Positions 26,981 through 54,900 are shown, counted from the stretch's first letter. The stretch is 62,971 nucleotides of DNA from an uncultured archaeon (GCA_964651915.1 CAZYZI010000001.1:1-62971), one strand, 5' to 3'. A program made the numbers and translations. Notes: generated by a model from the letters alone, not told the origin.

Positions 26981-28194
26981 ATAAATTGTACGTGGCAGGA
27001 ATAGCTTTTCTTTTATCTTTTACAGGATGTATTGATACTGAAGATGATTCGGAAGTAGATCATACTCCCTCTCTGAGAGAATCTGTCGATAGATTATATG
27101 ATTATTGGAATTCAAGACCATATGTTACCGACTCTGAATGGTATTGTGGAATAATGGTAGAACCTGACGGGAAATTTTTGAATAATTCCGCTAAAGAAGA
27201 ATGTATCAATGGGTGGAAAGAGTTTTATGATTCTTGGTATGAGTACTTTGACGAAGGGTTCGAAATGAAGCTCATAGATAGTAATTATACTGAGGAAGAA
27301 AAAATGAATTACAAAGGAGTGGTCTATGAGGTGACTGTGGATCAGAAATATTGTTCGAGATACAACAGTACGGAACCTTGGGATTGTAATAGTGATTATG
27401 AAAATATTTCTCTATGGGCTCTGGTCGATGAAAAATGGGGTTGGGCAATCTACGGTTTGGACGAATACCTTAAGGAAACTGAAGAAGAAACTCAAGATTA
27501 CGACATGACCGTTACGGAAGTTGTTGATGGTGATACATTCTATCTTGGAAATGGCGACAAAGTCAGGATGTTAGGAATTAACACTCCTGAATCCGGAAGG
27601 CCTTATTCAGAAGAAGCTACAGAGTTTCTAACAAATATGATTTTAGGAAAAGAAGTTACTCTTGTAAATGATAGTAAAAATGGAGATTCAGATTCTTACG
27701 GAAGATTACTTGCCCATGTTTATGTCGATGATACATTTGTTAATTATGAAATTATCAAAGCAGGATTTGCATTCTGGTATCCTTACACATCAGGAACAGA
27801 TTTTGATTCCGAATATGAAGAAGCTCAAGATTATGCCTCAACTAATAAGGCTGGTCTTTGGACAGAATCTTCCTATAATTTGACTATTGACTATATTGAA
27901 TATGATCCAGAGGGGGATGAAGCTGAAGGAGAATATGTAGTTCTTACAAATCACGAAAATTACAATGTTAGTATGGTTGGTTGGTTTTTGCAAGATGAAG
28001 CTGCTCAAACAGCATATGAATTTGATTTTATTATAACAAATAACACAAGTATTCGGATTTATACTGGAGATGGAACTGACAATGCAACTACGTTATTCTG
28101 GGGATGGTATCAAGGAATCTGGAATAATAGTGGCGATTTTGCCATAATTCAGGATGAAAATGGCTACATGGTTGATAGTTACAGATACGATTAA
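26977..28194 (+). CDS. Lipoprotein nuclease: unknown N-domain + staphylococcal-nuclease (SNase) domain + lamin-tail domain
   Basis: Lipobox LSFTGC. SNase core VVDGDTFYLGNGDKVRMLGINTPE ... YGRLLAHVY. C-terminal LTD pattern EYVVLTNHENYNVSMVGWFLQD ... WNNSGDFAIIQDENGYMVDSYRY. Confidence 0.82.
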   Translation: MNKLYVAGIAFLLSFTGCIDTEDDSEVDHTPSLRESVDRLYDYWNSRPYVTDSEWYCGIMVEPDGKFLNNSAKEECINGWKEFYDSWYEYFDEGFEMKLIDSNYTEEEKMNYKGVVYEVTVDQKYCSRYNSTEPWDCNSDYENISLWALVDEKWGWAIYGLDEYLKETEEETQDYDMTVTEVVDGDTFYLGNGDKVRMLGINTPESGRPYSEEATEFLTNMILGKEVTLVNDSKNGDSDSYGRLLAHVYVDDTFVNYEIIKAGFAFWYPYTSGTDFDSEYEEAQDYASTNKAGLWTESSYNLTIDYIEYDPEGDEAEGEYVVLTNHENYNVSMVGWFLQDEAAQTAYEFDFIITNNTSIRIYTGDGTDNATTLFWGWYQGIWNNSGDFAIIQDENGYMVDSYRYD

Positions 28195-28241: not shown

Positions 28242-30017
28242 ATGGAACAACGTCTCTTTGCAGGAATTACTGTAGGAATCCTGCTTTTGTCATCGCTATT
28301 ATTGTACTTCAATGAAGACAATGAACAAGATGACGATTATTACATGGGCGATAATGGCCTTGTTCCTGTATGGGAAAGAGTAAACCAGAATTTCAATACA
28401 ACTGGATCTTACAGCTATACCTTAGTACCAGGACAATACGGCATAGTTGGTCCTGAAAGTGTATTCATTGATGTTGATTTGCCTTCAAGCGAATTAGGAT
28501 GTACAATTACTGATGATTGTCAAGTACATCTTGGATTATGGATGCCTGATGTTCCTAATGGAACTAAAGTTCCTGTTATTGCTGATGTTGGACCTTACTA
28601 CGATGATGGTGATGTAGATGCTTTAACACCTGCAAACCGTCTTGGCAAATTTTTGATTGAAAATATGGTTCCATATGGATATGCGGTTGCTCAAGTTTCT
28701 GTATTTGGAACTGGAATGTCGAATCACTGCATGGATTTCATGGGACTAAGTGAGCAAATGGGAATTGATGCTGCCGTAACTTGGTTAGGAACACAAGAAT
28801 GGAGTAATGGAAATGTTGGGATTGTTGGAAAATCATACGATGGAACTACACCTTGGCAAGCTGCAATGTTTGGCAATCCTCATTTGAAAACTATTATTCC
28901 TATTTCAGGATTAATTGGTGTCCATGATTTAATGTGGAGAAATGGATCAATGGAAGCTAGAGGAATAGCTATGCACAATGGTGTCTACGGTTCCTTTGGA
29001 TGGGATGGAGATAGTGATGATTGGCAAACTATGTGCAGAGGATATGCAGAAGGATATGCAAATGGACCTGCTGCATACTTAGCTGGTGACGAGGTTAATT
29101 ATGCAGGCAATACCTATTGGGCAGATAGACATTTCTTAGAAAGAGCAATGCAGAATTATAATGGCTCTATCTATTTCATCCATGGAATGCAAGATTGGAA
29201 TGTTGATCCGCATATGGCATTCCCTGCATATAAGCAACTACAAACAGCTGGATTCGAAATTAAAGGATTATTTGGTCAATGGGGGCATCACTATCCTGAT
29301 AGACCGAGTGACCAAAATGGAATGTCATCTGGAAGAGGAGCTGAAGCATTTCCATATTCTGTAAGATATGATTGGGCGCAAGACTTACTGGAATGGTTCA
29401 ATTACTATTTGTATGAAGGAAATATGAAACCTGCACTACATGTTGAAATGCAGGATAATATGGGTGGATGGAGAGTCGAAGAAACTTGGCCTGTTAATGA
29501 CCGAGAATATTTACACTTACCAATCGGCGAAGGATTGAACGTTGTTTCAGGAAGCGGATTAGTTGGACCAACCAATACATTGACACTAGAAACCGGAATT
29601 TTTGAAAATGAAACCCGTATTTCAGGTATGCCTACTTTTCATGTGGATGTTACAATACCACCTACCCAAACTTCAGGACACTTATTCATCGAATTATCTA
29701 TTACTGATGGAATACATCTTGGACATGGAGTAATGGATCTAAGATATCATGAAGGTGGGAGAGATTGTGGGCAACCATGCACAGTTATTGGAACCGTAAA
29801 TGCAAAAATGCAAATGTTTGCGCTGGATGTCGTTGTACCTGCAGGAAGTACCTTAGAACTTGTAGTTAGTCAAACTAATGATGACTATGTTCCTTCTCCT
29901 GTAAGTAGTGGATATGTTACAATTGGAACCGATCAAAATAGTGTGTTAACTCTTCCAATTATTGATAGGGGCCCTGAAGATTTATTCACGCCACCTATTT
30001 GGTACACTGAAGAATAA
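28242..30017 (+). CDS. Membrane-anchored S15-family X-Pro dipeptidyl-peptidase (CocE/NonD hydrolase)
   Basis: N-terminal anchor helix, nucleophile elbow GKSYDGTTPW, FIHGMQDWNV and a C-terminal beta-sandwich, as in the PepX/CocE family. Confidence 0.8.
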   Translation: MEQRLFAGITVGILLLSSLLLYFNEDNEQDDDYYMGDNGLVPVWERVNQNFNTTGSYSYTLVPGQYGIVGPESVFIDVDLPSSELGCTITDDCQVHLGLWMPDVPNGTKVPVIADVGPYYDDGDVDALTPANRLGKFLIENMVPYGYAVAQVSVFGTGMSNHCMDFMGLSEQMGIDAAVTWLGTQEWSNGNVGIVGKSYDGTTPWQAAMFGNPHLKTIIPISGLIGVHDLMWRNGSMEARGIAMHNGVYGSFGWDGDSDDWQTMCRGYAEGYANGPAAYLAGDEVNYAGNTYWADRHFLERAMQNYNGSIYFIHGMQDWNVDPHMAFPAYKQLQTAGFEIKGLFGQWGHHYPDRPSDQNGMSSGRGAEAFPYSVRYDWAQDLLEWFNYYLYEGNMKPALHVEMQDNMGGWRVEETWPVNDREYLHLPIGEGLNVVSGSGLVGPTNTLTLETGIFENETRISGMPTFHVDVTIPPTQTSGHLFIELSITDGIHLGHGVMDLRYHEGGRDCGQPCTVIGTVNAKMQMFALDVVVPAGSTLELVVSQTNDDYVPSPVSSGYVTIGTDQNSVLTLPIIDRGPEDLFTPPIWYTEE

Positions 30018-33877: not shown

Positions 33878-36800
33878 ATGTCACGCAAACTAACTGCTTT
33901 CCTGCTAGCCATACTAATGTTGCCGCTATCTGCTATGAATACAATAGCTGATGAAGGTGACCCTGATTTATCAATAAATGAGATAACATTTAGCGATGAT
34001 TCACCTACTGGTGGAGATACAATAACGATTACTGCTGAAATTGCCAATGATGGTGGAGCTAGTGGACTGGTAAGCGTGACTACCAATGTTAGCTTTTACT
34101 GGGATGGAAATTATATCGGAAAGGAAAGTATAACAGTTCCTGGAAGTAATACTGCTGATGCAGAAATGGATTGGAGAGCCGTTGGAGGTTCGCATACCAT
34201 CAAAGTAATTGTAGATGAAGAAGAACAAATTCGAGAATCTGACGAAGACAATAACGAAGAAGAAGAAGATATCGATGTCGCCTATCCTCCAATTCTTTTG
34301 CTAGATGACGACAATAGTGACAATAATGGAGGATTCAAAACTGAAACCGATAGCTATTACGTCAATTCATTAGACAATATGACTACGGAAATGGGATATG
34401 ATATTATTAGAGTAAACAGTGGAGAAGATGCACCAGATTATGATACTCTTAGTGAATACAGCTTGATTATCTGGGCTTGTGGAACGGACTATCAAAGCGG
34501 AGATACAGATATCACATTTACAAACAATGATAAAGAAAATGTTGCTGATTTCCTTGAAGGCGGAGGAAGCTTATGGGCTATCGGACAAGATATTCTATAC
34601 GATTTTAACACTGCAGACGGAGAACGTAATGAAGGTGATTTTGAATATGATTATCTCGGAGTTACTTATGTTGATCACGACAGAACTACTCCTGCTGTAT
34701 TGCAAGGTGTAGATGACGATCCTATCTCAGACGGTGTACAATATGATGCAGATGCAATTTCTTCTGATTTTGCCGATGATCTTAATCCGAAGTCTGGATT
34801 TGAAAAAGTATTCAGTTCTGGAGCTCCAGATGATTACAATACTTCAACAATCAGAACTGAAGAGGATTTCAAAGTAGTCTTCATGACAGTAGATTTCAGT
34901 TCGATAACAAATAGTGAAGACCGCGATGAGTTAATGGAACTTGTAGTTGAATACTTAGTTGAACAACTTGAAAATGATGTAAGTCTAAGTCGTTTCAACA
35001 CTCCTAAAGATGGTGAAACTGTTGAACCTAATGTTGATAATATTGTGAATGTTACTGTTCGAAATAGAGGAACTGAAGATCAGGATAGCGTCCAAGTTTC
35101 CATAGATATAAGATGTTTGAACAATACATACCGCTTTACGGATTCTGAAACAATATCATTAGACACTGGTGAAGGAGCATATGTAGAATTTGAATGGGAA
35201 ACTCCTGATGATGAAGATTATGTATATGAAATTAAAGCTGAAGCTACAATTTCGGACGATGAAAAAGAAGATAATAATGGAAAACAAATTTCCGTTAATA
35301 CTTACGTAAATTATGACGTAGCATTATCTGAAGCTAGAGTAGATCCGATGATTGCTGAAAAAGATACGAATCGAGAAATGAGTGTGATTGTAACTAATAC
35401 TGGTGATGTAACAATGAACTCTGATATCAGCGGAAAAGTATATGATGGCGCTGGAGGAACAATGTACAATGGTGAAACTCAATCTACTGGAGATTTGAGT
35501 CCTGGCGATTCTATAACTCTAGAATGGGAATGGTCACCTGATGAATATGGAACTTTCTGGTTCGAGGCCGAAGTACATGATGATGACGATGAAGTTCCTG
35601 AGAATGACAAAGCTACTGCCCTTATGAGAAGTGTTGACATTGAATTTAGCGACGATATGGAAGAAGGGATAAATGGATGGACGCATTACAAATCATTGTC
35701 AAATCCATGGCATTTAATTGATACTGATGAAGATGAAAACAGAGAAGCTGCAAGCCCAACACACGCCATGTGGGTTGGAGATGGATCTAAAGGAGACGGA
35801 GAATACGACAATAATTGGGATTTCTCCCTGTATACTGCAGACAATCATACTCTAGGAACAAATCCATCCATGTCAGTTGAGATTTGGTATAGTACCGAAT
35901 TTAGTTGGGATGGAGGAAATGTACAAATTTCTACCGATGGTGGAATTGAGTGGGAAGTTATCACGCCAGATGGTGGATATCCTGATGATGCTGTAGTTGG
36001 TTTGGATAACGAACCAGGATACACTGGAACCTCGGGTGATGATCCTGATGGAGAAACTGCTTGGGAAACTGCAAATTTCAACCTTGGAAATTATACGAAC
36101 GAAGATGTAAAATTCAGATTTAGATTTGGAACTGATTCTTCTGTGGAAGGCTATGAAGGATGGTATATTGACGATTTCAAAATTGTTAATGGAGTAAGTA
36201 CCCAATTTGAAGATGATTTTGAAGACGGTACTAGTGATTGGGAAGCTGATGTTGTCCTAAGTGAATGGCATTATTATTCAAAAGATGAAGATTATGGAAA
36301 AGCCTATTCGGGTGACTATGCCTGGTACCTAGGAAATCCTGACACTGGAGCTTATAGTGCCTCACTAAATGATTCTTTAGAAACTCCAACTATTGATTTA
36401 GGAGATGGATCTGAGAAATATGTTTCTGCTATGGTTTGGTTTGGAATTGATGGGCCATATGACTTTGTTGCTCTTGAAATAAATGTATCTGGAGAATGGG
36501 AAACTATTGACACATTCCCTGGAAATGATGGTGATTATTCTGAAGAATATGACGATGCTGACGAAAATGGTTGGCTATACGTAGAATCAGATGTAAGTGA
36601 ATATGAAGGTGATATTAACTTTAGACTACGATTTGTATCGGATACATACACACAATACAACGGATTGTATGTTGATGATTTTACACTATACAGTTTACCA
36701 CCAATACCTAATGATGTTGGAACTAAAGATTTGAACGCCCCGGATACTGCAAAACCAGGAAGAGCTGTATCTTTTACTTCTAATATCTATAACTTTGGTA

Positions 36801-39800
36801 CCGAAGATCAAAACAGCTTTGACGTAAGAGGAACTGTAACCAGAGATGATGGAACTGAAGTTTACAACGAAACTCAAGAAGTTGACAATCTTGATTCTAA
36901 AGACAACACTACTTTAGATTGGACTTGGGAAGGAGGGCCAAATGGAACTTACACCATTAGAGTTGAAACATTACTAGAGGATGATGAAAGAGCTGGAAAC
37001 AATCCAAAAGAAAAAGTAATTGATGTTGCAGAAAGTGGATATCAAGTTGCCTTAGCTGTAGAAGAACAAGCTAAAGAAGTACTTTCAGGAGAATCTGTAT
37101 TCTTCAACTTTACAGCTACGAATACTGGAGAAAATAGTGGATATTACGATATTACTGTAGATTATGTTAGTGAACAAGATGAATGGAAAATAATATCACA
37201 CGTTACTACTCTCTATCTAACTTCTGGCTCAAGTCAGGACTTTACAGTTGTAGTAATAGCTCCAACATTAGCACCACTTGGAGATGAACATTCATTCTCA
37301 GTTACTGTGACTAGTAGAGATGATCCAGATACTGAAGATACACAAGAAATCTCTGCGACGCCATTATACTACGAACAAAATGGGGGAGACAAAGTACTCT
37401 TAATCGATGCTAACTTTGGTAAAAATAACGGATATAACAATTACTACAATGTTGATGACATCGATGTAAGAATGAAAGACACCTTGCAAGAATACTTCGG
37501 CGAAGGTGAAAGTCGAGGTTACGATGTTTATACAATTCCATATGATAATGAAGCAGGTGCTTATGGAGAACTTTATCCATATCCTACTAATGAATTAATG
37601 ACAAATTATGATGTAGTAATATGGGTACAAGGCGATCATCATCAAAGAAATTTAACAAATTGGAAGAATTGTATTAGCGATTACTTAGACGCAGGTGGAA
37701 GTATGTGGATTATGGGGCAGCAATACTTAACTGCTCTAAATAGTTCTACAGGCTCAAGAGAAGCTGGAACTTTTGAACATGATTATCTGAAAATAAAATA
37801 TGTAAGTGACAGCTCAGGAACTCCAAACCCAATGATTGGCGTTGAAGACGATGAAATATTCAACGAAGCTGAATATGACATGGGTGATCGAAGTATCTAT
37901 TCATACGACTATGCAGATTGGATTCGTCCAACGGATGATGCTGTAGGAGCTTTCTACACTGGTAAGGGCAACTGGTGGCATATTGTAGATACTGAAGAAG
38001 ATTCAAACCGGAAAGCAAACAGTCCAACTCATTCAATGTGGATTGGAGATGAATCAAAAGAAAATGGAGAATATCATAGCGGTTGGGATTACTCCATATA
38101 TACCTCAGATTCGTTTAGCTTGGGTGTTGGAGGACAATTAAGATTCCAACACTATTATGACACCGAAAGTGCAACATACCCTTATGATGGTGGAAATGTA
38201 CAAATTTCTACTGATGAGGGAGAAAACTGGGAAGTAATACATCCAAGTGGAGGATATCCTGCAGATTCAGTTACTGGACTTGATGGAGAAGCTGGATACT
38301 ATGGTGATTCAAATGGTTGGGTACAAGCATCTTTTGACTTAGGAAATTTCTCAGGCGAGGATGTAAGGTTTAGATTTAGATTTGGTTCCGATGGCGTTGT
38401 AGATAGTTATGAGGGTTGGTATTTCGATGATGTGGAACTAACCGATACCTCTGGATCATTATTCAGTGATGATATGGAAGCAGGAATGAGTGATTGGAAT
38501 GATTCACCTCAGATTTACAACATGTCACTACACTATGATGGAGATTATCGACTTATTGTTTCACCATTCACTTTTGCCTTTGTAAATAATAGTGAAGATA
38601 GAGATGATATGGTTGGTAGAGGTTTAGATTGGTTAAGAGCTGCTGCTGCGGCTGACGACGTTGGTGTCAAATTGTTAGAGATCGAAAGCGCGACAGAAGA
38701 AAACTCTACAATTGCTTTCTCAAGTATAATCAAAAACTACGGTTCTGAAGATCAAGCTGCATTTAATGTAGAAGGAAGAGTCGTTGATTCTGAAGGTAAT
38801 GAACTATGGTCTCAAACACAACTTGCAGGACCTTTACAATCTGGGGAAGAAGAAACCTTAGATTGGGAATGGGATAGTGGAAATCCTGATGAAGTAACTA
38901 TTATTGTTGAAACTCTAAAAGATGATGAAAATCATCGTAATGATATCAAAGAAGAAAATATTGAAATTGTAATGATTTGCATACCAGAAGTCACTACATT
39001 TAACGATCACAAGCAAGGTCAGCCTGGAGATGATGTAATATTTGATTTAATCGTAAGCAACAGAGCCTCAGGAACGGATATTATGGAAATAGAGATGACT
39101 GGAAGTGCTTCAGGATGGGGGCAGATTGCAAATGAAATGGAACTAAAAAGCAACGAAAGTCGAGATTTAGAATTAGCTTTAAAGATTGATGAAGATGCAG
39201 AATATGATGATTATGATTTGATCATAATTGTAACTGCAAGTGATGGAACTGTTGAGGAACTTGAATTACTTGTAACTGTTACTGATAACCCTGTAAATTA
39301 TGAAGTTGAAATTGAATTAGACCCAACAAACGCTGAAACTATAGCTGGTCAAGATGTTGAATTCACAGTAACTATCCATAATAAGGGGGATGAACAAGAT
39401 ACATTTGATCTCAAAGCTAGTGAAGAATGGGTAACATTTGATGAGGATGAAATAACAATTGGGGCAGATGGACAAGCTACTGTTAACGGAATAATTAGTG
39501 TTCCTTCAGATGCTTCAAATGGAAATTCTTACATTGATATCAGTGCAACTTCAAGAGGCGATCAAAGTGCTTCGGATGAGAAGACTATTAAAGTCGTTGT
39601 AGAAGAATTAGAAAGTGGAGCTACCTTACGAAGAGATACTGGAGGGCTGATTACTATTGCCCCTGGTGAATCTGGAGTATTTGAATTTACTTTGTTAAGT
39701 GATAGTAATGGCGAACAAAGTCTCTCTATCGTAACAACGGCCACTGCAGGTGAATGGGCTACGCCATCAATAACTGAAGTAGATTTAGAAGCTGGTGAAG

Positions 39801-40489
39801 GAACTACATTCACTGTAACTGTAAATGTACCTGCTGGAACTTCTGAAGAAACTTACAGACTAGAAGTTTTAATTATGAACGGAGATGAAGAACTCGCAAA
39901 ATCGGTTTCAAACGTAATTGTTCAAGAAATTGTTGAAGAAAATATGGATATTATGTTTTGTTTAACTGATCTTAGTGGATTTTGTTTAAGTTCTGGTAAT
40001 TTTGAAGTTACCATTGAAGCTGAAAAAATACAAACTGCATCAGTAGGGTTCTCAGTTGAAAATTTAGGTAATGTTGATACTGAAATCGCATTTGAAGTGG
40101 TAATGCCTGATGGAACAACTGGCTCCGAAGTTTACTTTGATGAGAACCTAAAAGAATGGAGAATTGCTCTTTCCCCGTCTGAAACAGAACTATACCCAAT
40201 AAGTCTTGATGCGGGAGATACTATGGACTGGGGTGCTGTTGCAGTAATAGCCAGAGAAGTTTCACCTGGTTCCTATACCTTTACAGTAAACTTATTGAAA
40301 GCTACAGAAACTAGTACTGGTAGCTACATTTTTGAGAATCTAGAACAATTAACAATTACTGTTATTGTTGAAGGTGAAACAACGGAAGAAAGTGCTGGAG
40401 ATGAGGAAGATGATTCTCTACTTCCTGGCCCTTCATTCATATCAGTTGTAGCAATGCTAGCGATAATAGTCTATAGAAGAAGAATATAA
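33878..40489 (+). CDS. Giant (2203 aa) acidic surface protein: CARDB repeats, duplicated alpha/beta + Asp-box beta-sandwich super-modules, Ig-like repeats, PGF-CTERM-like anchor
   Basis: Signal peptide and at least 5 CARDB-like units (for example DLSINEITFSD..GDTITITAEIANDGG). Two paralogous sandwich modules carry GGNVQISTD-x-G-x-x-WEV ... VKFRFRFG ... YEGWY-x-DD. Tail SLLPGPSFISVVAMLAIIVYRRRI. Confidence 0.9.
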   Translation: MSRKLTAFLLAILMLPLSAMNTIADEGDPDLSINEITFSDDSPTGGDTITITAEIANDGGASGLVSVTTNVSFYWDGNYIGKESITVPGSNTADAEMDWRAVGGSHTIKVIVDEEEQIRESDEDNNEEEEDIDVAYPPILLLDDDNSDNNGGFKTETDSYYVNSLDNMTTEMGYDIIRVNSGEDAPDYDTLSEYSLIIWACGTDYQSGDTDITFTNNDKENVADFLEGGGSLWAIGQDILYDFNTADGERNEGDFEYDYLGVTYVDHDRTTPAVLQGVDDDPISDGVQYDADAISSDFADDLNPKSGFEKVFSSGAPDDYNTSTIRTEEDFKVVFMTVDFSSITNSEDRDELMELVVEYLVEQLENDVSLSRFNTPKDGETVEPNVDNIVNVTVRNRGTEDQDSVQVSIDIRCLNNTYRFTDSETISLDTGEGAYVEFEWETPDDEDYVYEIKAEATISDDEKEDNNGKQISVNTYVNYDVALSEARVDPMIAEKDTNREMSVIVTNTGDVTMNSDISGKVYDGAGGTMYNGETQSTGDLSPGDSITLEWEWSPDEYGTFWFEAEVHDDDDEVPENDKATALMRSVDIEFSDDMEEGINGWTHYKSLSNPWHLIDTDEDENREAASPTHAMWVGDGSKGDGEYDNNWDFSLYTADNHTLGTNPSMSVEIWYSTEFSWDGGNVQISTDGGIEWEVITPDGGYPDDAVVGLDNEPGYTGTSGDDPDGETAWETANFNLGNYTNEDVKFRFRFGTDSSVEGYEGWYIDDFKIVNGVSTQFEDDFEDGTSDWEADVVLSEWHYYSKDEDYGKAYSGDYAWYLGNPDTGAYSASLNDSLETPTIDLGDGSEKYVSAMVWFGIDGPYDFVALEINVSGEWETIDTFPGNDGDYSEEYDDADENGWLYVESDVSEYEGDINFRLRFVSDTYTQYNGLYVDDFTLYSLPPIPNDVGTKDLNAPDTAKPGRAVSFTSNIYNFGTEDQNSFDVRGTVTRDDGTEVYNETQEVDNLDSKDNTTLDWTWEGGPNGTYTIRVETLLEDDERAGNNPKEKVIDVAESGYQVALAVEEQAKEVLSGESVFFNFTATNTGENSGYYDITVDYVSEQDEWKIISHVTTLYLTSGSSQDFTVVVIAPTLAPLGDEHSFSVTVTSRDDPDTEDTQEISATPLYYEQNGGDKVLLIDANFGKNNGYNNYYNVDDIDVRMKDTLQEYFGEGESRGYDVYTIPYDNEAGAYGELYPYPTNELMTNYDVVIWVQGDHHQRNLTNWKNCISDYLDAGGSMWIMGQQYLTALNSSTGSREAGTFEHDYLKIKYVSDSSGTPNPMIGVEDDEIFNEAEYDMGDRSIYSYDYADWIRPTDDAVGAFYTGKGNWWHIVDTEEDSNRKANSPTHSMWIGDESKENGEYHSGWDYSIYTSDSFSLGVGGQLRFQHYYDTESATYPYDGGNVQISTDEGENWEVIHPSGGYPADSVTGLDGEAGYYGDSNGWVQASFDLGNFSGEDVRFRFRFGSDGVVDSYEGWYFDDVELTDTSGSLFSDDMEAGMSDWNDSPQIYNMSLHYDGDYRLIVSPFTFAFVNNSEDRDDMVGRGLDWLRAAAAADDVGVKLLEIESATEENSTIAFSSIIKNYGSEDQAAFNVEGRVVDSEGNELWSQTQLAGPLQSGEEETLDWEWDSGNPDEVTIIVETLKDDENHRNDIKEENIEIVMICIPEVTTFNDHKQGQPGDDVIFDLIVSNRASGTDIMEIEMTGSASGWGQIANEMELKSNESRDLELALKIDEDAEYDDYDLIIIVTASDGTVEELELLVTVTDNPVNYEVEIELDPTNAETIAGQDVEFTVTIHNKGDEQDTFDLKASEEWVTFDEDEITIGADGQATVNGIISVPSDASNGNSYIDISATSRGDQSASDEKTIKVVVEELESGATLRRDTGGLITIAPGESGVFEFTLLSDSNGEQSLSIVTTATAGEWATPSITEVDLEAGEGTTFTVTVNVPAGTSEETYRLEVLIMNGDEELAKSVSNVIVQEIVEENMDIMFCLTDLSGFCLSSGNFEVTIEAEKIQTASVGFSVENLGNVDTEIAFEVVMPDGTTGSEVYFDENLKEWRIALSPSETELYPISLDAGDTMDWGAVAVIAREVSPGSYTFTVNLLKATETSTGSYIFENLEQLTITVIVEGETTEESAGDEEDDSLLPGPSFISVVAMLAIIVYRRRI

Positions 40490-41284
40490 TTATTCTTCAA
40501 AGGTACCTTGGAAAATTAAAGCCGGTATAAGTGCAAAATAAGACATGTAGAGCAGAAATGCTGCAAACCAAATAGTTTCCCACAAATCATTATTAAAAAA
40601 TCGAAGGGCTACAGTTAGTAAAAGAATTAAGATTCCAAATAATATTGGTTTTAGAAAACCTGCCCTAGCTTTTGCATAAGGTACGGTACTAACTGTAAGC
40701 AAAGATACAATACCTATCGATAATGGAACCGAGACATTGTAAAATTCATTAATCAATGAATATTTTATTGAGATTAGTACAATAAACATTGTAAGTCCTG
40801 GTGATGGCAAGCCCTCAAAATATTTGTTTGAACTTTGGTCACCTATAGTAAACCTAGCTAATCTAAAAAGACTGAGTAAAGCAATCATTAAAGATGCCGT
40901 AATTGCAACCAGATTTTCTATATTATGTTTAAATTCAATCTGCATATCATCATTCAAAATATCTAAGGCTGGACCTTTACTAAGGTCATAATACAATGAA
41001 TAAACTAAGATTGATGGGGCTATTCCAAAACAAATTGAATCTGAAATAGAATCAAAATATTTACCATAATCATGTTTTGTACCAAACTTACGGGCTAAGG
41101 CTCCATCCATTCCATCAATAATTGCTGAAATAGGAAGTAAAAGTAAAGCTACAATATAACTTTCAACCGTACCATCAATAATGTAAGTAATTGCTAGAAA
41201 ACCCAAAGTAGCGCTAGTAAAAGTTGCTAAATCTGCATAGGATATGAACGTTAATGGCTTAAAGAATCTTTTAATAAAATTCAA
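40490..41284 (-). CDS. pssA: CDP-alcohol phosphatidyltransferase, probable archaetidylserine synthase
   Basis: DGMDGALARKFGTKHDYGKYFDSISDSI matches D-G-x2-A-R-x8-G-x3-D-x3-D in a polytopic protein. Lies 1 nt downstream of the ArtA-PSD fusion gene. Head-group specificity is inferred from context only. Confidence 0.65.
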   Translation of the reverse strand: MNFIKRFFKPLTFISYADLATFTSATLGFLAITYIIDGTVESYIVALLLLPISAIIDGMDGALARKFGTKHDYGKYFDSISDSICFGIAPSILVYSLYYDLSKGPALDILNDDMQIEFKHNIENLVAITASLMIALLSLFRLARFTIGDQSSNKYFEGLPSPGLTMFIVLISIKYSLINEFYNVSVPLSIGIVSLLTVSTVPYAKARAGFLKPILFGILILLLTVALRFFNNDLWETIWFAAFLLYMSYFALIPALIFQGTFEE

Positions 41285-41285
41285 T

Positions 41286-42947
41286 TTAATCGAACCCCTC
41301 AGAAGCAGTTGCTTTCAATTTTGAAAAAAGTCTTTTTGGTGCTTCTACAACCTTTTCAACAGTAGATAAATCTGACATCGGAGTGAAAATAGCAATTGTT
41401 TGTCCTGCCAAAATGCGATCTCCTTTCTTAATTTTTAATTCAATACCTGATTCTTCAAAAGTCAAATCTACACGAGAACCAAAATGAATTAGGCCTATTC
41501 TTTCGCCTTTCTTAACTTTGAACTCTGGCTTTACATAACTCACAATTCTTCTCACAAGAAAACCTGCAATTTGAGTAATCTTGACAGGGCCTATTCTTGT
41601 ATCTAATTTAGTGATTAATCTTTCATTCTTGTCTGAATCTTTAGAGAAGGCTGGCATGTATCCTCCTGGTTTATGTTTCTGAGAAATAACTTTCCCATTA
41701 ATCGGCGATCTATTCACATGCACATTTTGAAGATTCATGAATATAGAAATCTTAACCATCCCATTTTTCTTAATTGCTTTTTGAACTAAACCATCTGCTG
41801 GACTCACAATTCCTTTCTGAATTTCTCTATAGGGATCGCGATAAAAGAAAAGAAGGAATGCTGAAACGAAAAGTAGAACTAATGAAATTATGTACATTTC
41901 TTCAAGAGGTAAATCTACACTAATACCTTGGCTGGTAATTGAATCAGCTGATGCTCCAAATGGAAATAATACTAAACCAAATATTGAAATATAAATTACG
42001 CTAGTAGGCATCCCTTTTGCAAAAGGAAGAGGGGGTGCATCTTGTGGAGCTTTGCGTAATGGTAAGTCAATAACGCCAAGTATAGAATCTTGCATTTCGG
42101 GTAAGAAATGAAAAACGGCAACAGCTAAGAATATTAGCGCAATTAAACTTCCTACTTTTCCAATTACGGCATGAGCCCAGAAAAATGTATCATCCCCCCA
42201 AACATGTTCATATGTCAACCAAATAACTACTGCATTACGTATTAAATTTAATAAATATATTGGAGGAACTGTAACTAAGAAACCATTCAACCTACTACGG
42301 AAGGAAGCTTTAGTACAAATTACACCACCTACAAAAATAATCATGCTTTGAAGAGCTGTACATGCAAGAACTATATTGACAGAAGGGGCAAGAGGATCTT
42401 TCCAATTTTCTGCCTCGACTGAAACTCTTACTTCCTGATGTTCTGAACCTGAACGATAAAAACGAGAACCTTCACCATAATCTATTGCGCCCAAACTAGT
42501 CTCGAGATCAAAAATATGAAGAAGCCAAACTGATTGTTCAGCTACCAAATGAATAAACCAGCCAGCAAGTAAAGGAACTCTTTCAACGAAAAAATAAATT
42601 CCACCTGCTACAACTGTCATAGCTGCTAACCATCGTAATGGCTCGTATGATTCTTTCCAGAGAACGCTCAAATATTCGTGGTATGCTAAATATCCAAAAA
42701 ACGGAATCGCTGCTGCACAAATTAAAGCATTAACAGGATCTTTTATCAGAATATAATACTCTACTTGAATCCACCAAAAAAAACCAAGACATAACCAACC
42801 CAGTATCGATATTTGATGTCCTATCTTTTTAGGAAAATGTTTTCCAAGAAAATTATGGCCTTTGTCTGAAAGAAAATAACCTATACTTAAAAGAAATAAC
42901 GAACTTATGACAAAAACTTCGCCCAGTAATGATAAGTCAGTTGCCAT
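41286..42947 (-). CDS. Fusion protein: archaeosortase A (N-terminal ~300 aa) + phosphatidyl/archaetidylserine decarboxylase (C-terminal ~190 aa)
   Basis: N-half is polytopic with IVLAC(196)TALQS, LLNLIR(236)N and FWAH(259)AVIGK, the exosortase/archaeosortase signature order. C-half has FYRDP, SPADG, NVHVNRSP, NER, QIAGFLVRRI and HFG-S(490)-RVD (pyruvoyl self-cleavage site). Single uninterrupted 553-aa frame. Confidence 0.8.
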   Translation of the reverse strand: MATDLSLLGEVFVISSLFLLSIGYFLSDKGHNFLGKHFPKKIGHQISILGWLCLGFFWWIQVEYYILIKDPVNALICAAAIPFFGYLAYHEYLSVLWKESYEPLRWLAAMTVVAGGIYFFVERVPLLAGWFIHLVAEQSVWLLHIFDLETSLGAIDYGEGSRFYRSGSEHQEVRVSVEAENWKDPLAPSVNIVLACTALQSMIIFVGGVICTKASFRSRLNGFLVTVPPIYLLNLIRNAVVIWLTYEHVWGDDTFFWAHAVIGKVGSLIALIFLAVAVFHFLPEMQDSILGVIDLPLRKAPQDAPPLPFAKGMPTSVIYISIFGLVLFPFGASADSITSQGISVDLPLEEMYIISLVLLFVSAFLLFFYRDPYREIQKGIVSPADGLVQKAIKKNGMVKISIFMNLQNVHVNRSPINGKVISQKHKPGGYMPAFSKDSDKNERLITKLDTRIGPVKITQIAGFLVRRIVSYVKPEFKVKKGERIGLIHFGSRVDLTFEESGIELKIKKGDRILAGQTIAIFTPMSDLSTVEKVVEAPKRLFSKLKATASEGFD

Positions 42948-42985: not shown

Positions 42986-43714
42986 TTATTTTGAAAGCCA
43001 ATTTTGGGCTTCTTTATAGGAGCCTAAATCTCCAATATCATACCAAGTTCCTCGATATGAAACACTTAGAACATTATTCCTCTTAACATTCCAAGTTAAA
43101 AAATTACCAAGTGCATCACGATCTCCTCCGGAATTGATATATTCAAAGAAATTTGAAATTCCATCTTCAGACAACATCCAATATGCTGTCGCAGCTAATG
43201 TAGACTTAGGAACTGAAGGTTTTTCTACAAAGTTCACTATTCTATCAGATTTTAATTCGGCGATACCGTATAACTTAGCAAGATTTATATCTTCAACATC
43301 GTAAAGACCAATAACATCTCTATTAGTCCGATTTGATTTAGAAACCATTTCACTTAAATCAAAATCTGATAAATTATCTCCACCTGCAATTAAAACTGGA
43401 CCTTTGATAGATAACTCAGAGAATAACAAGTTAAGAGCACCCAATGCTCCTAATTTTTCCTCTTCATTTTCACTAGATTCAACAAAAAGTTCAAGGTTTA
43501 ATGAACCTTGGTAATTATCTATAAATTGACTAAAATTAGATGAAAAAAAACTATTTGCTGAAATAATAACTCTTTCAGGAGAAACCTTTTCCAATGTTCT
43601 AAGAACATGTGCAAGCATTGGTTCACCTGCCACATCAAGAAGTTGTTTAGGTGTTTTCTCAGTAAGAGGCAACATTCGTTTGGCAAAACCGCCAGCCAGA
43701 ATGATTGAATCCAT
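42986..43714 (-). CDS. Sugar-/alcohol-phosphate nucleotidyltransferase (NTP_transferase fold; substrate unknown)
   Basis: N-terminal ILAGGFAKRMLPLTEKTPKQLLDVAGEPML is the G-x-G-x-R-L signature of the GlmU/RmlA/LicC-type nucleotidyltransferases. Confidence 0.7.
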   Translation of the reverse strand: MDSIILAGGFAKRMLPLTEKTPKQLLDVAGEPMLAHVLRTLEKVSPERVIISANSFFSSNFSQFIDNYQGSLNLELFVESSENEEEKLGALGALNLLFSELSIKGPVLIAGGDNLSDFDLSEMVSKSNRTNRDVIGLYDVEDINLAKLYGIAELKSDRIVNFVEKPSVPKSTLAATAYWMLSEDGISNFFEYINSGGDRDALGNFLTWNVKRNNVLSVSYRGTWYDIGDLGSYKEAQNWLSK

Positions 43715-44604
43715 TAAAGATTTATTTTTCCGCCAGACATTAATTGTTGTAATGCATCATCTGCTGCATTGTTTAATTTCTTTTCATCGTATAATTCTTT
43801 CTTAATATTCTTTCGATGATCTTTAACAACCTTCCAACGAGCTTGGCGTTCTTCACTAGCTGCTTTTCTATGAGTCTTTAATGTGTCAAGCATTTCCATA
43901 GCCTTTGTATGTTGATTATCTGCTTTCTTTCTATACTCAACGAATTCTTTGTGTTTTTTATCTGCTTCTGTAGATAAATGAGAAGCTTCTTTCATCAAAG
44001 AACTGACTTTTTTATATATTTTTTTGTTTAAACGTGCTAAATTTACAACTTCTTTATGCTCTTCATCTGCTTTAGAGAATTCAGTATCAATATCTTTGTC
44101 TAATTCTGATACCTCTGCCGTTAAATGTTCTTGAGTCACTAAAACTTCTTCTTGATCGTCTAAGCTTCTTCTCAAAATAGCCAATCTATCCATAAGTTCT
44201 CTTTCTTTAGCTATTGGCATTTCTGTTGTTTCTCTTCTTTTCTCTAAGTTAAGAATTTCTGAATGAAGTGCCTGAACTGTATCTTTTAATGATTTTTCGC
44301 CTTTCTTACCTTTCCTTTTTTGTTGTTTGAGCTCAATTAATTTTTTAGCTTTTTCTTGAGAGCTGTTCCGAGCATTCTGGTGCTTAGTCTTAGTAGTAGT
44401 ATTAGATTTCATCTCGTCACGATGCTTCATTATCTCTTCCATGACTTTGTTTCTTTGATCATGTAAAGAATTGCGTTCATCCCTTAATGCTCGGGCATCA
44501 TCATTTAGAGAATTACGTTTAACAATGCAATTCTGAAAGCGCTCTTCGGCCAATTTAATTTCTGATTTTGGCTTCCTCTGAGTTCGGTTCTTTTTCTGAC
44601 TCAT
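43714..44604 (-). CDS. Lys/Glu-rich coiled-coil protein (archaeal coiled-coil family, function unknown)
   Basis: 296 aa, almost entirely heptad-like charged sequence with no TM helix. Resembles the conserved uncharacterised archaeal coiled-coil proteins. Confidence 0.55.
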   Translation of the reverse strand: MSQKKNRTQRKPKSEIKLAEERFQNCIVKRNSLNDDARALRDERNSLHDQRNKVMEEIMKHRDEMKSNTTTKTKHQNARNSSQEKAKKLIELKQQKRKGKKGEKSLKDTVQALHSEILNLEKRRETTEMPIAKERELMDRLAILRRSLDDQEEVLVTQEHLTAEVSELDKDIDTEFSKADEEHKEVVNLARLNKKIYKKVSSLMKEASHLSTEADKKHKEFVEYRKKADNQHTKAMEMLDTLKTHRKAASEERQARWKVVKDHRKNIKKELYDEKKLNNAADDALQQLMSGGKINL

Positions 44605-45706: not shown

Positions 45707-46336
45707 ATGCTTAGTAAAACCCTAAAAACTGCTGCTGGGAAACTCTTGAATCCATTAGGAAAAGGTCTTGGGAAAATAGGCATCAAACCAAATCATATTA
45801 CTGTAATGGGACTTGTTTTGACATTTTACGCTGCATGGCTCCTTTACAATCAAAATATTTACGAAGCTTTTGCTATTGGATTAATTGCTTCTTTATTCGA
45901 TGGAGCTGATGGTTTGGTTGCTAGGGCAACAAAAACCACTTCGATAAGAGGCGGATATCTAGATGCTACATTAGACCGATATGCTGATTGTTTCGCATTT
46001 AGTGCGCTGATTCTATGTAATTGGGTAAAGCCACTACCAATTGTACCATTGGAATTTATTTCAGGACAAGTCTGGGCAATGGCTGCTATGATTGGGGCTT
46101 TTCAAACATCTTACTGTCGAGCCGCTGCTGAAAGATTAGGAGTTTCACAAGAAGGAATTGGATTCATTGAAAGGCCCGAAAGATGGTTTGTATTAGGTAT
46201 GGGGGTATTAGTTGGAGAAATGATGGGAGATATTGAAACCGTTATCACAATAGTTGTAGCTATTTTAGCAGTTTTAGGAAATTTGACCGCTTTGCAAAGA
46301 ATGTATCATTTCTGGAATGAGGCAAAAGATGACTGA
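45707..46336 (+). CDS. CDP-alcohol phosphatidyltransferase (second copy; archaetidylglycerophosphate/inositolphosphate synthase-like)
   Basis: DGADGLVARATKTTSIRGGYLDATLDRYAD matches D-G-x2-A-R-x8-G-x3-D-x3-D. Followed directly by pgpA. Confidence 0.7.
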   Translation: MLSKTLKTAAGKLLNPLGKGLGKIGIKPNHITVMGLVLTFYAAWLLYNQNIYEAFAIGLIASLFDGADGLVARATKTTSIRGGYLDATLDRYADCFAFSALILCNWVKPLPIVPLEFISGQVWAMAAMIGAFQTSYCRAAAERLGVSQEGIGFIERPERWFVLGMGVLVGEMMGDIETVITIVVAILAVLGNLTALQRMYHFWNEAKDD

Positions 46337-46817
46337 ATCGAATAATTTGATGAAAGAAGCTTTTATTTCTTTTTTCTTTCTTGGAAAAGCCCCTATAGCT
46401 CCAGGTACATTTGGATCTCTTGGATCCTTAATTTTAGCTTATTTTATTATCGAGAATGTTAGTGAATTTTCAGGTTATCTGATATTGGGGCTGGGGGCTG
46501 TAATGTACTATATTGGATTACAAATCGCCCCATGGTGCGAAAAAAAATATGGTAAAGATCCGGGAGTTTATGTAATGGATGAAGTTATAGGGTACCTAAT
46601 TCCAATAGGATTCTTACTTATTTTGGGAATAAAAATTACTACTAATATCTGGATTTGCTCTTTTATCGCTTTTAGAATATTTGATGTTCTAAAAATATGG
46701 CCTGCGAAGAATTTAGAAAATATAGAAGGCGGACATGGAATACTTTTAGATGATGTTGCGGCAGGATTTCAAACATTGATTCTAATTTTACTTTTTTACC
46801 AATTCAATATAATCTAA
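46317..46817 (+). CDS. pgpA: Phosphatidylglycerophosphatase A
   Basis: GTFGSLGS, MDEVIGY, KIWPA and LDDVAAG motifs of PgpA. Internal Met starts at 46329/46350 would shorten the overlap. Confidence 0.8.
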   Translation: MRQKMTESNNLMKEAFISFFFLGKAPIAPGTFGSLGSLILAYFIIENVSEFSGYLILGLGAVMYYIGLQIAPWCEKKYGKDPGVYVMDEVIGYLIPIGFLLILGIKITTNIWICSFIAFRIFDVLKIWPAKNLENIEGGHGILLDDVAAGFQTLILILLFYQFNII

Positions 46818-51916: not shown

Positions 51917-54900
51917 CTATTCTTCTTCTCTGCGAAGAGAAGCGCCGATAGATGCTACTAAGGCTGCTACGGATAGACCGATGATTCCAACTGCGAAAGA
52001 TGGAGTAGATGACTTGTTCTTGACAACTGCAATAGTGCCTTCTGCGTCATTATCATCTTTTTGGTTTAGATATTCATCTTGTGTCTTAACTCCGGCCTTG
52101 ACATCCTGCTCTTCTGCATCTGGGTTGATCATTGCATACATGTTCACAGTTTCAAATTCTTGAACTGTTGAACCAGGGATGTATGCTTCGTCCCAAGTTG
52201 CTGTTGCATAATACCAAGTCTGGAAAATTCCATCATTTTCCATGACAGGCTTAGGTGCCATTAGTGGTACGGTTGTTGAAGCTACTCTATTCATACGTTG
52301 AATTCCGTCTGGAGTAGAGTATGCATCACCAGTAGAGTCCATGACGTAGAAAACAACTAACACATCAGATGCGTAGTTACCTTCATTCCATGCCTTAACT
52401 GTGATGTCCAAAGGTTCTCCTTCAATTACACCTGCGCGATCAAAGGTCATTTCTCCAAGCACGAATTGTGATGGTTTAATGAACAATGTTGCTGCAACTG
52501 GTTCTCTTAGAGAATCGTCACTTCCTGTATCGTATCCATTGATTACAACATCGAATTTTCGGTTACCTGCTGGTTCCCCTGCTTCTTGGTCATAATCTGG
52601 AGCTCCGAAGCGGACTGTGATTAATGCTTCATCATCTGGACTCATATCAAATTCATGGGTCCAAGTTCCGTCTTCATTCTGTGTTGTGGTAATATCTTCA
52701 AAAGTATTACCGTTCATCAAGACATTGATTGAAATATCAAAGGCTGCACCATCATAGGATTTACCCTGAGCTTCCAATTCTGGATTCATACGGAATGTGT
52801 TGTCCACTGTACCAATATTCTTAGCGAAGTAATCAATTTCGACTGCTAAACTTGGGAATATGTCATAGGTTAATTGGCCAACATCGTCCTTCGTTAAGAA
52901 GAAACCAGTGTCAAGAGTTCTAATTACTTGAACGCCACCAATGTCAGCAGTTCCTTCAACTCCTCTTGCACGGAAGACAAATGAGTAAGCATTGTCATCT
53001 GCAGGGTTGTAGCTTAGACTGCTGTAACCGAGTTTCTTTGAATCCAAAGACATGTAGTATGGATTCCAACCATCTGATTTTCCACTCAATGAGTTTCCAA
53101 CTTCTTCATGGTCTGAACCATCCATTATGCTGAATCCATTAGCATCCCATAGACCTATTGAATCTGCGTCATCTAATGAAGCTCCTTTCTTCTGAGCGTA
53201 TATGCTTATTCCGCTGTCTTCAGACATCTCGAAATTAGCCCAGAATACCAGATAAGATGTGGAAGACCAAACTTCAATGTAATTTGTTCTAACTTGCTCA
53301 TCTGCAGATTGTGAAGAGGTTACTGTAACTGAACCCTCCATCATTGGATGATACTTACAGTAATAATCGAACATACCAACTTCAGTGAAGGTCAATGACC
53401 AACTTTCACCTGGTGCAATATCGAAAGAATCGAATTGCGCATTCTTATCTGTTACTGTGTGAGTTATAGTATCTGAATTGGTCCATGTTACTGCAGTTCC
53501 AATCTGAACTTCCGGTGTAGCTGGACTAAAGCCAGTTGCTTGTCCTCCAATACTTACCGCTAATGTTTCAGTTGCAACACCAGTTCGATCCCAAGATACA
53601 CTCATAGCTCCATCGCCAACATCTGCTGGTTCATTATCGGTTGCTACCCAGTTCTCTCCACCAGTTAATACTGGAGATCCCATGTTTGCACTCTTACCGA
53701 CAATCAACATATGGCTTGCATCATTATTAGCTTTAAACAAATCAGCCAAGAGATTTCCATCAGAATCTGCCACCTTAACTCCTGCAGTGTAAAGACCAGC
53801 TGCACTCATTCCTGGGAAGTTGAAATCAATAGCTGCTGTTTCCTCACCTGCATGTGTAACAAGTGCATCATCGTAGTAAGCCATTGCTAAAGTTCCAAGA
53901 GATGTAGATGAAGACCACTTTTCGTTTCCACTCATATCATTCACGTATGCGTACGCGTAGGCTGAGTTAACTGGACCACTTGGTCCAAGGTCACCCATAC
54001 CTTGATTCTTGAATGAAGTAGACATAGTAAATCCTTCACCAACTTCTAAGGTGTATGGAGATGATTCAGAAGTCATAGCTAGGTCAAAACCAAGGCCGTA
54101 AACTCCTACATTGTCAATTTCCCACATTGAAATCCAATTAGGGAAACCTCCACCGAAACGGAATCTTATCTGAACTTGATCCATGCCTTCTCCGGTATAA
54201 GCATCTAATCTACATTGTGATTCTACCCAACCACCAGAGCCCATAACAAAGGCTTGTTCATTGTAGAACGGATGTCCGTAGTATGCATAATTGTAGATAC
54301 TACCTTTGTAGCCCTGACCTGATGTAACAGCTAATGAAGACCATGTTTCTCCTGCATCAGTACTGATTTCAACACGTCCACCTTCATAATAATAGCTATA
54401 AGATGCACTTTCAGATCCGTAGAAATCATATTTATGATCAAATACTAATTTAGCGGATGTAGATGTTGAAAGGTCGAATACTGGCGATACCAAACTAGAA
54501 TCGTCTCCATTGTAAGGTGTACCATATGCTCCTTCACCAGCCCACCATGTTGGTGAACTACTTGCTCCAGTAGTTGATGAAGGTAGCCATTGATAACCAT
54601 CCTTAGGACCTCCATCTACAGAAGAATGCCAACCACTATCATACCATCGGTCGTTGAATTCATCATTCTTCTTAGATAATGCAACCTCATCTGCAGTTGT
54701 AGAAACAACTGTAAACATAGTCTCTCTTGCTAGAGAAACGCTGTTATCTCCTGCAAACTCATCAATTCCAGAATCTGGAGTGGAACCAATCCACGTATCG
54801 AATACTACTTTGTAACTTCCCGGAACTTGGAAATGATAATCTACTCCAACAACCTTTGAAGAGCCACTTTCGAAAGCTCCACCAACGCCATCACCTGAGA

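Follow-up and report, generated by a model that had tools for sequence, protein, structure and literature searches.

We analyzed a stretch of 62,971 nucleotides from an uncultured archaeon (GCA_964651915.1 CAZYZI010000001.1:1-62971; hereafter, the window), which has a G+C content of about 36-37%. On its minus strand, an open reading frame (ORF) at 41286..42947 (stop codon, 41286..41288) encodes a protein of 553 amino acids (aa) in which an archaeosortase A (ArtA) module is followed by PssD, a decarboxylase module of the phosphatidylserine decarboxylase (PSD) family. A gene for a PssA-like CDP-alcohol phosphatidyltransferase follows on the same strand, and a gene for a giant surface protein converges with it. 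Judged by its profile matches and its conservation, the 553-aa protein is real: a bifunctional membrane protein encoded by Marine Group III (MGIII) archaea, class Poseidoniia.

Both halves of the protein were recognized by curated models. Residues 41 to 293 score 142.3 bits with the NCBIfam model for archaeosortase A (TIGR04125; cut-off, 75), and residues 190 to 283 score 65.2 bits with the exo/archaeosortase signature (TIGR04178; cut-off, 23). The Pfam model PS_Dcarbxylase (PF02666) matches residues 362 to 519 with 134 bits against 22, covering model positions 2 to 197 of 198, and the protein also passes the NCBIfam PSD equivalog NF003685 (192.4 bits against 183). An earlier reading of this DNA, made by a model from the sequence alone (the sequence-only reading), had described two enzymes in one polypeptide, the second a complete short-type decarboxylase located after two further helices, and had proposed profile searches of each half. 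Its description is borne out by these matches, and all of the motifs it quoted are found in the 553-aa protein; among the models it had named, Pfam PF09721 (Exosortase_EpsH) did not reach an E value of ≤0.1 in the Pfam scan. NCBI names the fusion proteins "archaeosortase A" and JGI names them "phosphatidylserine decarboxylase," so that each label covers one half only. Searches of the PDB by sequence, using the fusion protein and profiles from two alignments (A1, fused proteins; A2, diverse ArtA proteins), yielded no match, even at E ≤ 10 for A2, and no entry in the PDB copy searched matched members of the archaeosortase/exosortase family. When the AlphaFold2 (AF2) model of the fusion was compared to the PDB with Foldseek, nothing was found at E ≤ 0.001, and the beta domain gave weak lysostaphin/LytM-like matches.

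The archaeosortase A module (residues 1 to 300; 42048..42947, minus strand) is polytopic, with AF2 helices running from residues 4-26 through 254-281, and terminates in a basic tail, DLPLRKA. The predicted nucleophile of catalysis, Cys196, lies in IVLACTALQS (codon 42360..42362, minus strand), Arg237 lies in NLIRN (42237..42239, minus strand), and His259 lies in FWAHA (42171..42173, minus strand). These residues, which make up the Cys/Arg/His triad proposed by Haft, are on consecutive transmembrane (TM) helices and are invariant in the 11 fused sequences of A1 and the 17 diverse ArtA sequences of A2. The sequence-only reading had Cys196 and His259 in the right positions; the Arg it singled out is the conserved one, although its number (Arg236) was off by one. 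The spacing of 41 residues between C196 and R237 is that of C173 and R214 in Haloferax volcanii ArtA (HvArtA; numbers from PMC9263693). Through an indirect alignment, we inferred one column as the probable counterpart of HvArtA Arg253; there, 12 of the 17 ArtA sequences in A2 have R or K, and MGIII sequences have a histidine (His280). Other archaeosortase architectures were also seen (P0236, 592 aa; P0329, 578 aa; P0140; and P0147); some have a pentapeptide-repeat N-terminal region before the ArtA module, and others are ArtA proteins with long acidic low-complexity C-terminal tails.

The junction and the N-terminal TM hairpin of PssD occupy residues 301 to 369 (41841..42047, minus strand), as assessed from 20 stand-alone PssD ORFs, AF2 secondary structure, and residue charge over 42 fused proteins. 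The AF2 model places the two TM helices of the hairpin at residues ~315 to 339 and ~348 to 369, followed by FYRDP. In the 20 stand-alone ORFs, which come from operons, PssD starts with MKIAKG and continues with two hydrophobic helices and then FFRDP; PFAKGMP, at residues 308 to 314 of the fusion, corresponds to this M-K-I-A-K-G start. Because the stand-alone protein has the same layout, the two linker helices can be recognized as PssD's own N-terminal hairpin, and on this comparison the fusion junction is at residues ~300 to 308.

The decarboxylase catalytic domain (residues 370 to 522; 41382..41840, minus strand) was delimited with PF02666 and NF003685 and carries the motifs FYRDP, SPADG (D385), HVNR (H410/R413), and HFG-S491-RVD. 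D385, H410, and G490-S491 are invariant in every fused lineage, and the HxxR pattern formed by H410 and R413 matches H86/R89 of HvAsd (PMC9385802). The established chemistry of the PSD family predicts self-cleavage and formation of the pyruvoyl group at G490-S491 (codons at 41475..41480, minus strand), which would yield a 490-aa ArtA-PSD-beta chain and a 63-aa alpha chain. The same serine had been named earlier as the self-cleavage residue, with a number (Ser490) one short of its position after G490. By the same reasoning, the PssD module is predicted to decarboxylate a serine lipid. The last 31 residues (523 to 553; 41289..41381, minus strand) form an extension with a predicted helix at 529 to 550. 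This extension is found in the main MGIII clade only (alignment A1 and AF2) and is absent from the MGIII sequences of 512 to 515 aa (P0129 and P0132, in A1) and from P0211, a member of a group of 444- to 447-aa fusions.

The PssA-like CDP-alcohol phosphatidyltransferase (264 aa; 40490..41284, minus strand) matches PF01066 with 48.1 bits against 22 and has a complete CDP-alcohol phosphatidyltransferase motif, D57-x2-DG-x2-AR-x8-G-x3-D-x3-D82, at residues 57 to 82. The fusion ends in TAA (41288..41286), which is separated by a single nucleotide (A, 41285) from the TTG start of pssA (41284), and a Shine-Dalgarno-like GAGGGG lies 10 nt upstream of this start. This junction, with its nearby Shine-Dalgarno-like motif, suggests that pssA is translationally coupled to the fusion, and the distance from the fusion stop to the pssA start is between -7 and +3 nt in the majority of the 35 MGIII loci compared. 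The top NCBIfam matches of the PssA-like protein are archaetidylserine and phosphatidylserine synthases (arch_ser_synth first), all below cut-off; because of this ranking and of the PSD partner, its specificity is predicted to be for serine. The sequence-only reading had called this gene a PssA-like synthase 1 nt downstream of the fusion, and the family and the gap stand, although no cut-off for a serine synthase is reached.

Distribution and origin of the fusion

The fused protein is represented by at least 120 protein clusters (90% identity) whose full-length members have 540 to 581 aa (nearly all 550 to 581 aa) and are 68 to 91% identical. The search behind this count covered ~5.8 billion proteins, with assemblies from ENA, JGI, NCBI, Logan, and Tara, and both Pfam domains are recorded for most of the clusters. 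A scan of one genome per GTDB species, with the loci parsed by ORF and phmmer, gave 36 close relatives. Their titles name Marine Group III or Poseidoniia, or else a wider or clearly erroneous group, and the best of them shares 96% identity in the ArtA module. The fused ORF is continuous in 34 of these 36 MGIII species genomes, which comprise single-cell genomes and metagenome-assembled genomes. Of the two exceptions, one locus is cut by a contig end, and the other (MGIII CG-Bathy1) has ArtA alone. The idea that two genes were joined by a sequencing frameshift, as an artifact of assembly or gene calling, has practically no probability left: split versions do occur in databases (P0121-P0127 and L001; L085 and L086), but they derive from assemblies in which many neighbor genes are fragmented, and the intact ORF in at least 120 independent clusters and 34 species genomes already refutes it, which also settles the concern of the sequence-only reading about a hidden frameshift.

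We also considered these split artA/pssD versions as cases of gene fission and rejected them, as the neighbor genes in those assemblies are fragmented as well. In L001 (ERZ28548068 contig_22625_pilon, a Pilon-polished name), L085, and L086, many genes are split by frameshifts, giving false split artA/pssD clusters in databases. One contig with the MGIII fusion (L023; PCCQ01000086.1) is deposited as "Candidatus Neomarinimicrobiota bacterium," and the protein P0079 is deposited as "Marinimicrobia bacterium"; these labels are probably errors of binning or taxonomy.

An exhaustive profile search of 1.84 billion representatives (50% identity clusters) returned only two fused sequences among its 150 best matches, namely, P0209, which represents the MGIII fusion family, and P0211, which has 444 aa and is 33% identical to the window protein. 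Through P0211 we found further fused groups: the group of 444 to 447 aa, P0368 (533 aa), and P0370 (418 aa). The 444- to 447-aa group adjoins the genes for EF-1alpha and S10 and has no adjacent pssA; P0211 itself (L083, 5001-6335) is flanked by genes for ribosomal protein S10 and a P-type ATPase and likewise lacks a nearby pssA. P0370 (L087, 1583-2839) has a linker without a TM helix, the hairpin having been deleted, and its ORF overlaps pssA by 4 nt. P0211 and P0370 belong to other Thermoplasmatota.

Separate genes are found farther away. Among 44 distant relatives (33 to 48% identity, mostly titled Thermoplasmata or Thermoplasmatota), 20 have individual genes for artA, pssD, and usually pssA, in the same order and orientation and with ends that abut or overlap. 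The survey of fused and split genes that the sequence-only reading had proposed thus places the fusion in 34 of 36 MGIII genomes and separate genes in 20 of 44 distant loci. These gene arrangements show an origin of the fusion by stop-codon loss in an artA-pssD-pssA operon. The ancestral operon lost the artA stop codon, and simple read-through joined the cytoplasmic C-terminal tail of ArtA to the cytoplasmic N terminus of PssD, whose hairpin now serves as the linker.

To relate the fused groups to each other, we built a neighbor-joining tree from the ArtA modules of 50 taxa, with 100 bootstrap replicates. None of the 100 replicates united all fused sequences in one clade. The unfused CG-Bathy1 sequences joined those of MGIII in 99 replicates and an operon-type sequence joined P0370 in 91; the P0211 group and P0368 came out together in 36, so these two may go back to one fusion event. 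Because the fused sequences were never united and their genomic contexts differ, the fusion would have arisen independently at least three times, as far as this rough method can tell. The closest unfused relatives (60% identity), at L035 6001-6885 (CG-Bathy1) and L002 1904-2818, have a 304-aa ArtA, which in L002 abuts DHFR; the PSD module, pssA, and the giant surface protein are missing as a block at that position in both. This ArtA-alone state could be either a secondary loss or the state before fusion (bootstrap, 53/100).

Membrane topology

We assigned the topology from AF2 secondary structure, the charge bias of loops averaged over the 42 fused proteins, and the parity of TM helices in the linker. 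In the AF2 model, the catalytic region consists of helices at residues 188 to 210, 216 to 247, and 254 to 281, the linker helices are at 315 to 339 and 348 to 369, and the PSD beta domain comes after them. Cys196, Arg237, and His259 are located toward the outer ends of TM6, TM7, and TM8, respectively. Three loops are acidic and are predicted to be outside: the large loop before TM6 (residues 146 to 187; net charge, -4), the His259 loop (residues 248 to 259), and the hairpin loop (residues 340 to 347). Three regions are basic and are predicted to be inside: the loop after TM6 with the start of TM7 (residues 211 to 219), the tail after TM8 (DLPLRK), and the region after TM10 (R370/R374/K378). 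In region 102 to 145, two full membrane passes are incompatible with the remaining topology; this region may consist of one pass and an interfacial helix.

Two TM helices make up the linker of most fusions; the P0370 linker lacks them. With a parity of zero or two, the PSD domain must always be on the side of the ArtA C terminus, opposite the triad, a conclusion that makes no use of charge. Collectively, these features suggest that the decarboxylase is at the cytoplasmic face and the sortase triad at the outer face. The established location of PSD enzymes and CDP-alcohol transferases is the cytoplasmic face, which agrees with this topology. Likewise, the active site of ArtA has been placed outside the cell (PMC9263693). 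The sequence-only reading had the decarboxylase product handed directly to the sortase, a claim that finds no support: by charge and by parity, the two active sites are predicted to be on opposite faces, and the lipid would therefore have to cross the bilayer, i.e., be flipped, for any hand-off.

Candidate substrates and neighboring genes

As candidate substrates we took ORFs with a signal-like N terminus and a C-terminal motif, TM helix, and basic tail, of which the window has five. The gene convergent with pssA (33878..40489, plus strand) encodes a CARDB/MAM-domain surface protein of 2203 aa that ends in DD-SLLPGPSF-ISVVAMLAIIVY-RRRI (tail, 40415..40486). In 26 MGIII loci, a giant surface protein convergent with pssA has an acidic stretch, SLLPGPS[FIL], a TM helix, and a (Y)RRRK end, which makes the 2203-aa protein the conserved candidate substrate; in a divergent subclade of fused MGIII, LPAPSL replaces LLPGPSF. 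The remaining four are a secreted cupredoxin-domain protein of 1282 aa (6828..10676, minus strand; LPSISF-TM-RRRIH tail), a secreted C-type-lectin-domain protein of 605 aa (12217..14034, minus strand; LPGLSF-TM-RKPRL tail), a secreted cyclophilin peptidyl-prolyl isomerase of 251 aa (25494..26249, plus strand; TPGIGF-TM-RRN tail), and a secreted cupredoxin-domain protein of 2379 aa (51917..59056, minus strand; TPSF-TM-RREEE tail), the last being the weakest motif match of the five. As an anchored protein, the cyclophilin would be a lipid-anchored extracytoplasmic folding catalyst. The five candidate substrates of the sequence-only reading hold up as five tripartite tails, although not as matches to the PGF-CTERM model; by the curated model, the tails in the window are an LPGPSF-type variant and not canonical PGF-CTERM. 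At the distant operon-type loci, the tail filter found no PGF-type substrate adjoining artA, and co-variation of sortase and motif is therefore seen inside MGIII only (LLPGPSF versus LPAPSL).

Immediately upstream of the fusion is a gene for a sugar-1-phosphate nucleotidylyltransferase (42986..43714, minus strand; weakly AglF/GlmU-like). Together with a DUF7121 gene, it occupies 42986..44604 (minus strand), and the pair adjoins artA upstream in fused (L001) as well as unfused (L002) relatives; a link of this pair to the glycosylation of surface proteins is possible. Three kilobases from the fusion, another CDP-alcohol phosphatidyltransferase, whose catalytic motif is likewise complete (45707..46336, plus strand), overlaps a PgpA-type phosphatase (46317..46817, plus strand). 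This pair, which is also present in relative L001, looks like a second pathway for lipid head groups, perhaps of the glycerol-phosphate type. Two further proteins have hydrophobic, signal-peptide-like N termini, a staphylococcal-nuclease and lamin-tail-domain protein (26977..28194, plus strand) and an S15 X-Pro dipeptidyl peptidase (28242..30017, plus strand), and both fit a lifestyle of degrading extracellular polymers.

Function of the fusion and alternative explanations

The three enzyme families at this locus are those already connected in Haloferax. In H. volcanii, cleavage and lipidation by ArtA depend on HvPssA and HvPssD, as the sequence-only reading had noted; cleavage itself, and not lipidation alone, fails when PssA or PssD is missing, and ArtA, PssA, and PssD co-localize at midcell (PMC7157517). 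In the same study, Abdul-Halim et al. (2020) proposed that the amine of archaetidylethanolamine resolves the ArtA thioester, noted that an enzyme complex is possible, and left open whether the lipid binds to ArtA or the proteins interact with each other (PMC7157517). A 2022 review treats a functional complex of ArtA, PssA, and PssD as an open point (PMC9385802). The nucleophile mechanism put forward in the sequence-only reading is therefore not new, since it was proposed in 2020 for Haloferax (PMC7157517). The fusion is another matter: no description of it was found in PMC7157517, PMC9385802, Haft's 2023 preprint, a 2024 survey of archaeal fusions, or keyword searches, an absence that is not proof. 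The fused architecture, which the sequence-only reading had also believed to be uncharacterized, appears to be undescribed, as do the repeated appearance of the fusion, its derivation from an operon, the variant sorting signal, and the predicted placement of the active sites on opposite faces.

Haloferax and MGIII share the Cys-Arg spacing of 41 and the H-x-x-R pattern of HvAsd, and the tripartite C-terminal signals that ArtA processes in Haloferax have candidate counterparts in MGIII. In Haloferax, however, the three proteins are separate and their genes scattered, whereas in MGIII, ArtA and PssD are one polypeptide and pssA is apparently translationally coupled to it. The two also differ in sorting motif, which is PGF in Haloferax and LPGPSF-like in MGIII, and the haloarchaeal models anchor_synt_D and anchor_synt_A give scores below cut-off for the MGIII PSD half and PssA. 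In Methanosarcina, artA, pssA, and pssD are clustered (Haft 2012; Abdul-Halim et al. 2020, PMC7157517) but remain separate, whereas the artA stop is lost in MGIII. The Thermoplasmatota operons have the MGIII gene order, the MKIAKG motif, the two-TM hairpin, and abutting ends, with separate genes, and the P0370 fusion has deleted the hairpin.

Among other known systems, rhombosortase/GlyGly-CTERM, sortase A/lipid II, GPI (glycosylphosphatidylinositol) transamidase, and Atg8-PE (phosphatidylethanolamine) cleave a sorting signal or the C terminus itself and join the new carboxyl to an amine, as proposed for ArtA. The acceptor amine is that of the lipid II pentaglycine for sortase and that of phosphoethanolamine for GPI and Atg8-PE. 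For GlyGly-CTERM, it is that of glycerophosphoethanolamine (PMC7157517; Haft's 2023 preprint). The acceptor of the sortase and GPI systems is built at the cytoplasmic face and then flipped, as the MGIII topology implies, and the enzyme folds of rhombosortase, sortase A, GPI transamidase, and Atg8-PE are unrelated to ArtA. To our knowledge, in none of these four systems is the transpeptidase part of the same protein as the enzyme that produces the amine of the acceptor.

The best explanation as a whole, to which we assign a probability of roughly 0.7, is that the fused ArtA-PssD would both make the anchor lipid and use it. By homology, PssA, translated from the mRNA of the fusion, would make a lipid with a serine head group from CDP-activated lipid at the cytoplasmic face. 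The PssD module would cleave itself at G490/S491, creating its pyruvoyl cofactor and leaving ArtA covalently on the beta chain, and would decarboxylate the serine lipid to an ethanolamine lipid at the same face. The topology implies that this lipid would then move to the outer leaflet. There, following the hypothesis from Haloferax, the ArtA module would cleave Sec-exported proteins at the LPGPSF-TM-basic tail and transfer the new C terminus to the lipid amine. The fusion would thus enforce 1:1 stoichiometry and co-localization of lipid supply and sortase, with active sites that are not juxtaposed, and it supports a physical association and co-regulation of the two. In the sequence-only reading, the fusion had been taken as Rosetta-stone evidence; a functional or physical link is retained, without the direct hand-off. 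This link is strengthened by the artA-pssD-pssA order kept in distant Thermoplasmatota, by the apparent occurrence of at least three independent fusions, and by the conservation of a cognate-looking substrate gene beside the cluster.

Several results weigh against this explanation. The PSD half is below the cut-off of NF038088, the decarboxylase family of the protein sorting system (166.9 against 240), and the PssA-like protein is below that of the corresponding synthase, NF038086 (68.8 against 200), and below every cut-off of a serine-specific equivalog (NF038087, 93.6 against 240; TIGR00473, 83.8 against 107; TIGR04217, 80.6 against 200). The NCBIfam PGF-CTERM model did not match the five 45-aa tails of the window at E ≤ 10. 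In MGIII CG-Bathy1 (L035 and L002), ArtA is alone at the locus, which makes the fusion dispensable. Confidence in the AF2 model is medium (pLDDT, 71.6 overall and ~50 to 70 in the ArtA core; pTM, 0.61). Finally, the ethanolamine linkage of the lipid attached by ArtA is a proposal only, Haloferax included (PMC7157517). The membrane lipid chemistry of Marine Group II, the sister group of MGIII, is disputed (PMC7852524), which leaves the nature of the MGIII anchor lipid uncertain.

Unlikely, yet deserving serious consideration, is a neutral collapse of the operon, in which pssD and pssA are housekeeping genes for bulk ethanolamine lipid that became fused to artA by stop loss, with no mechanistic coupling, and in which ArtA needs the lipid only indirectly (e.g., through the membrane environment) or not at all. 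Where stop and start abut or overlap, one mutation can fuse the genes, and no topological rearrangement is required. Unfused and ArtA-alone states are common, within MGIII too, general PSD equivalogs give the PSD half higher scores than the sorting-system family does, and the active sites are predicted on opposite faces. Against neutrality stand a three-gene order that is kept across very distant lineages and the clustering of all three genes in Methanosarcina (PMC7157517). Also against it are a fusion that apparently recurred at least three times and is retained, with conserved linker residues, in 34 species-level genomes, the genetic evidence from H. volcanii that ArtA needs PssA and PssD for cleavage (PMC7157517), and the substrate gene conserved beside the cluster.

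A more ambitious version of the preferred explanation, in which lipid supply and sortase are not just co-localized, would make the fusion a self-contained anchor synthase, with the PssD hairpin packed on the ArtA bundle as a conduit that carries the ethanolamine lipid through the membrane from the PSD site to Cys196. We regard this as doubtful. If true, a single protein would physically link the making of the lipid, its flipping, and the transpeptidation, and a scramblase-like activity would be intrinsic to proteins of the ArtA family.

It is quite improbable that the PssD module is mainly a structural or allosteric partner that licenses ArtA cleavage by contact instead of supplying the nucleophile. 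A covalent fusion makes permanent contact plausible, an interaction between the proteins was left open by the Haloferax authors, and cleavage itself is blocked without PssA or PssD (PMC7157517). Against such a role, the catalytic residues D385, H410, and G490-S491 of the PSD module are invariant in every fused lineage, and pssA remains translationally coupled by all appearances, two observations that point to selection for the enzymatic pathway.

Taken with the preferred explanation of lipid supply and sortase held together, these natural, recurrent, and conserved fusions provide independent comparative evidence that ArtA and PssD work side by side in the membrane. They corroborate an existing hypothesis and enable experiments, and they should not surprise specialists. 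The fusion, pssA, and the adjacent candidate substrate form a compact system for joint reconstitution, and since no archaeosortase or exosortase was matched in the PDB copy searched, the single chain is an attractive structural target. As the acceptor lipid would be made inside and used outside, current schemes lack a flipping step. For the organisms themselves, abundant planktonic marine archaea, our analysis suggests that MGIII probably anchor giant surface proteins to lipid through an LPGPSF variant signal that current PGF-CTERM models miss.

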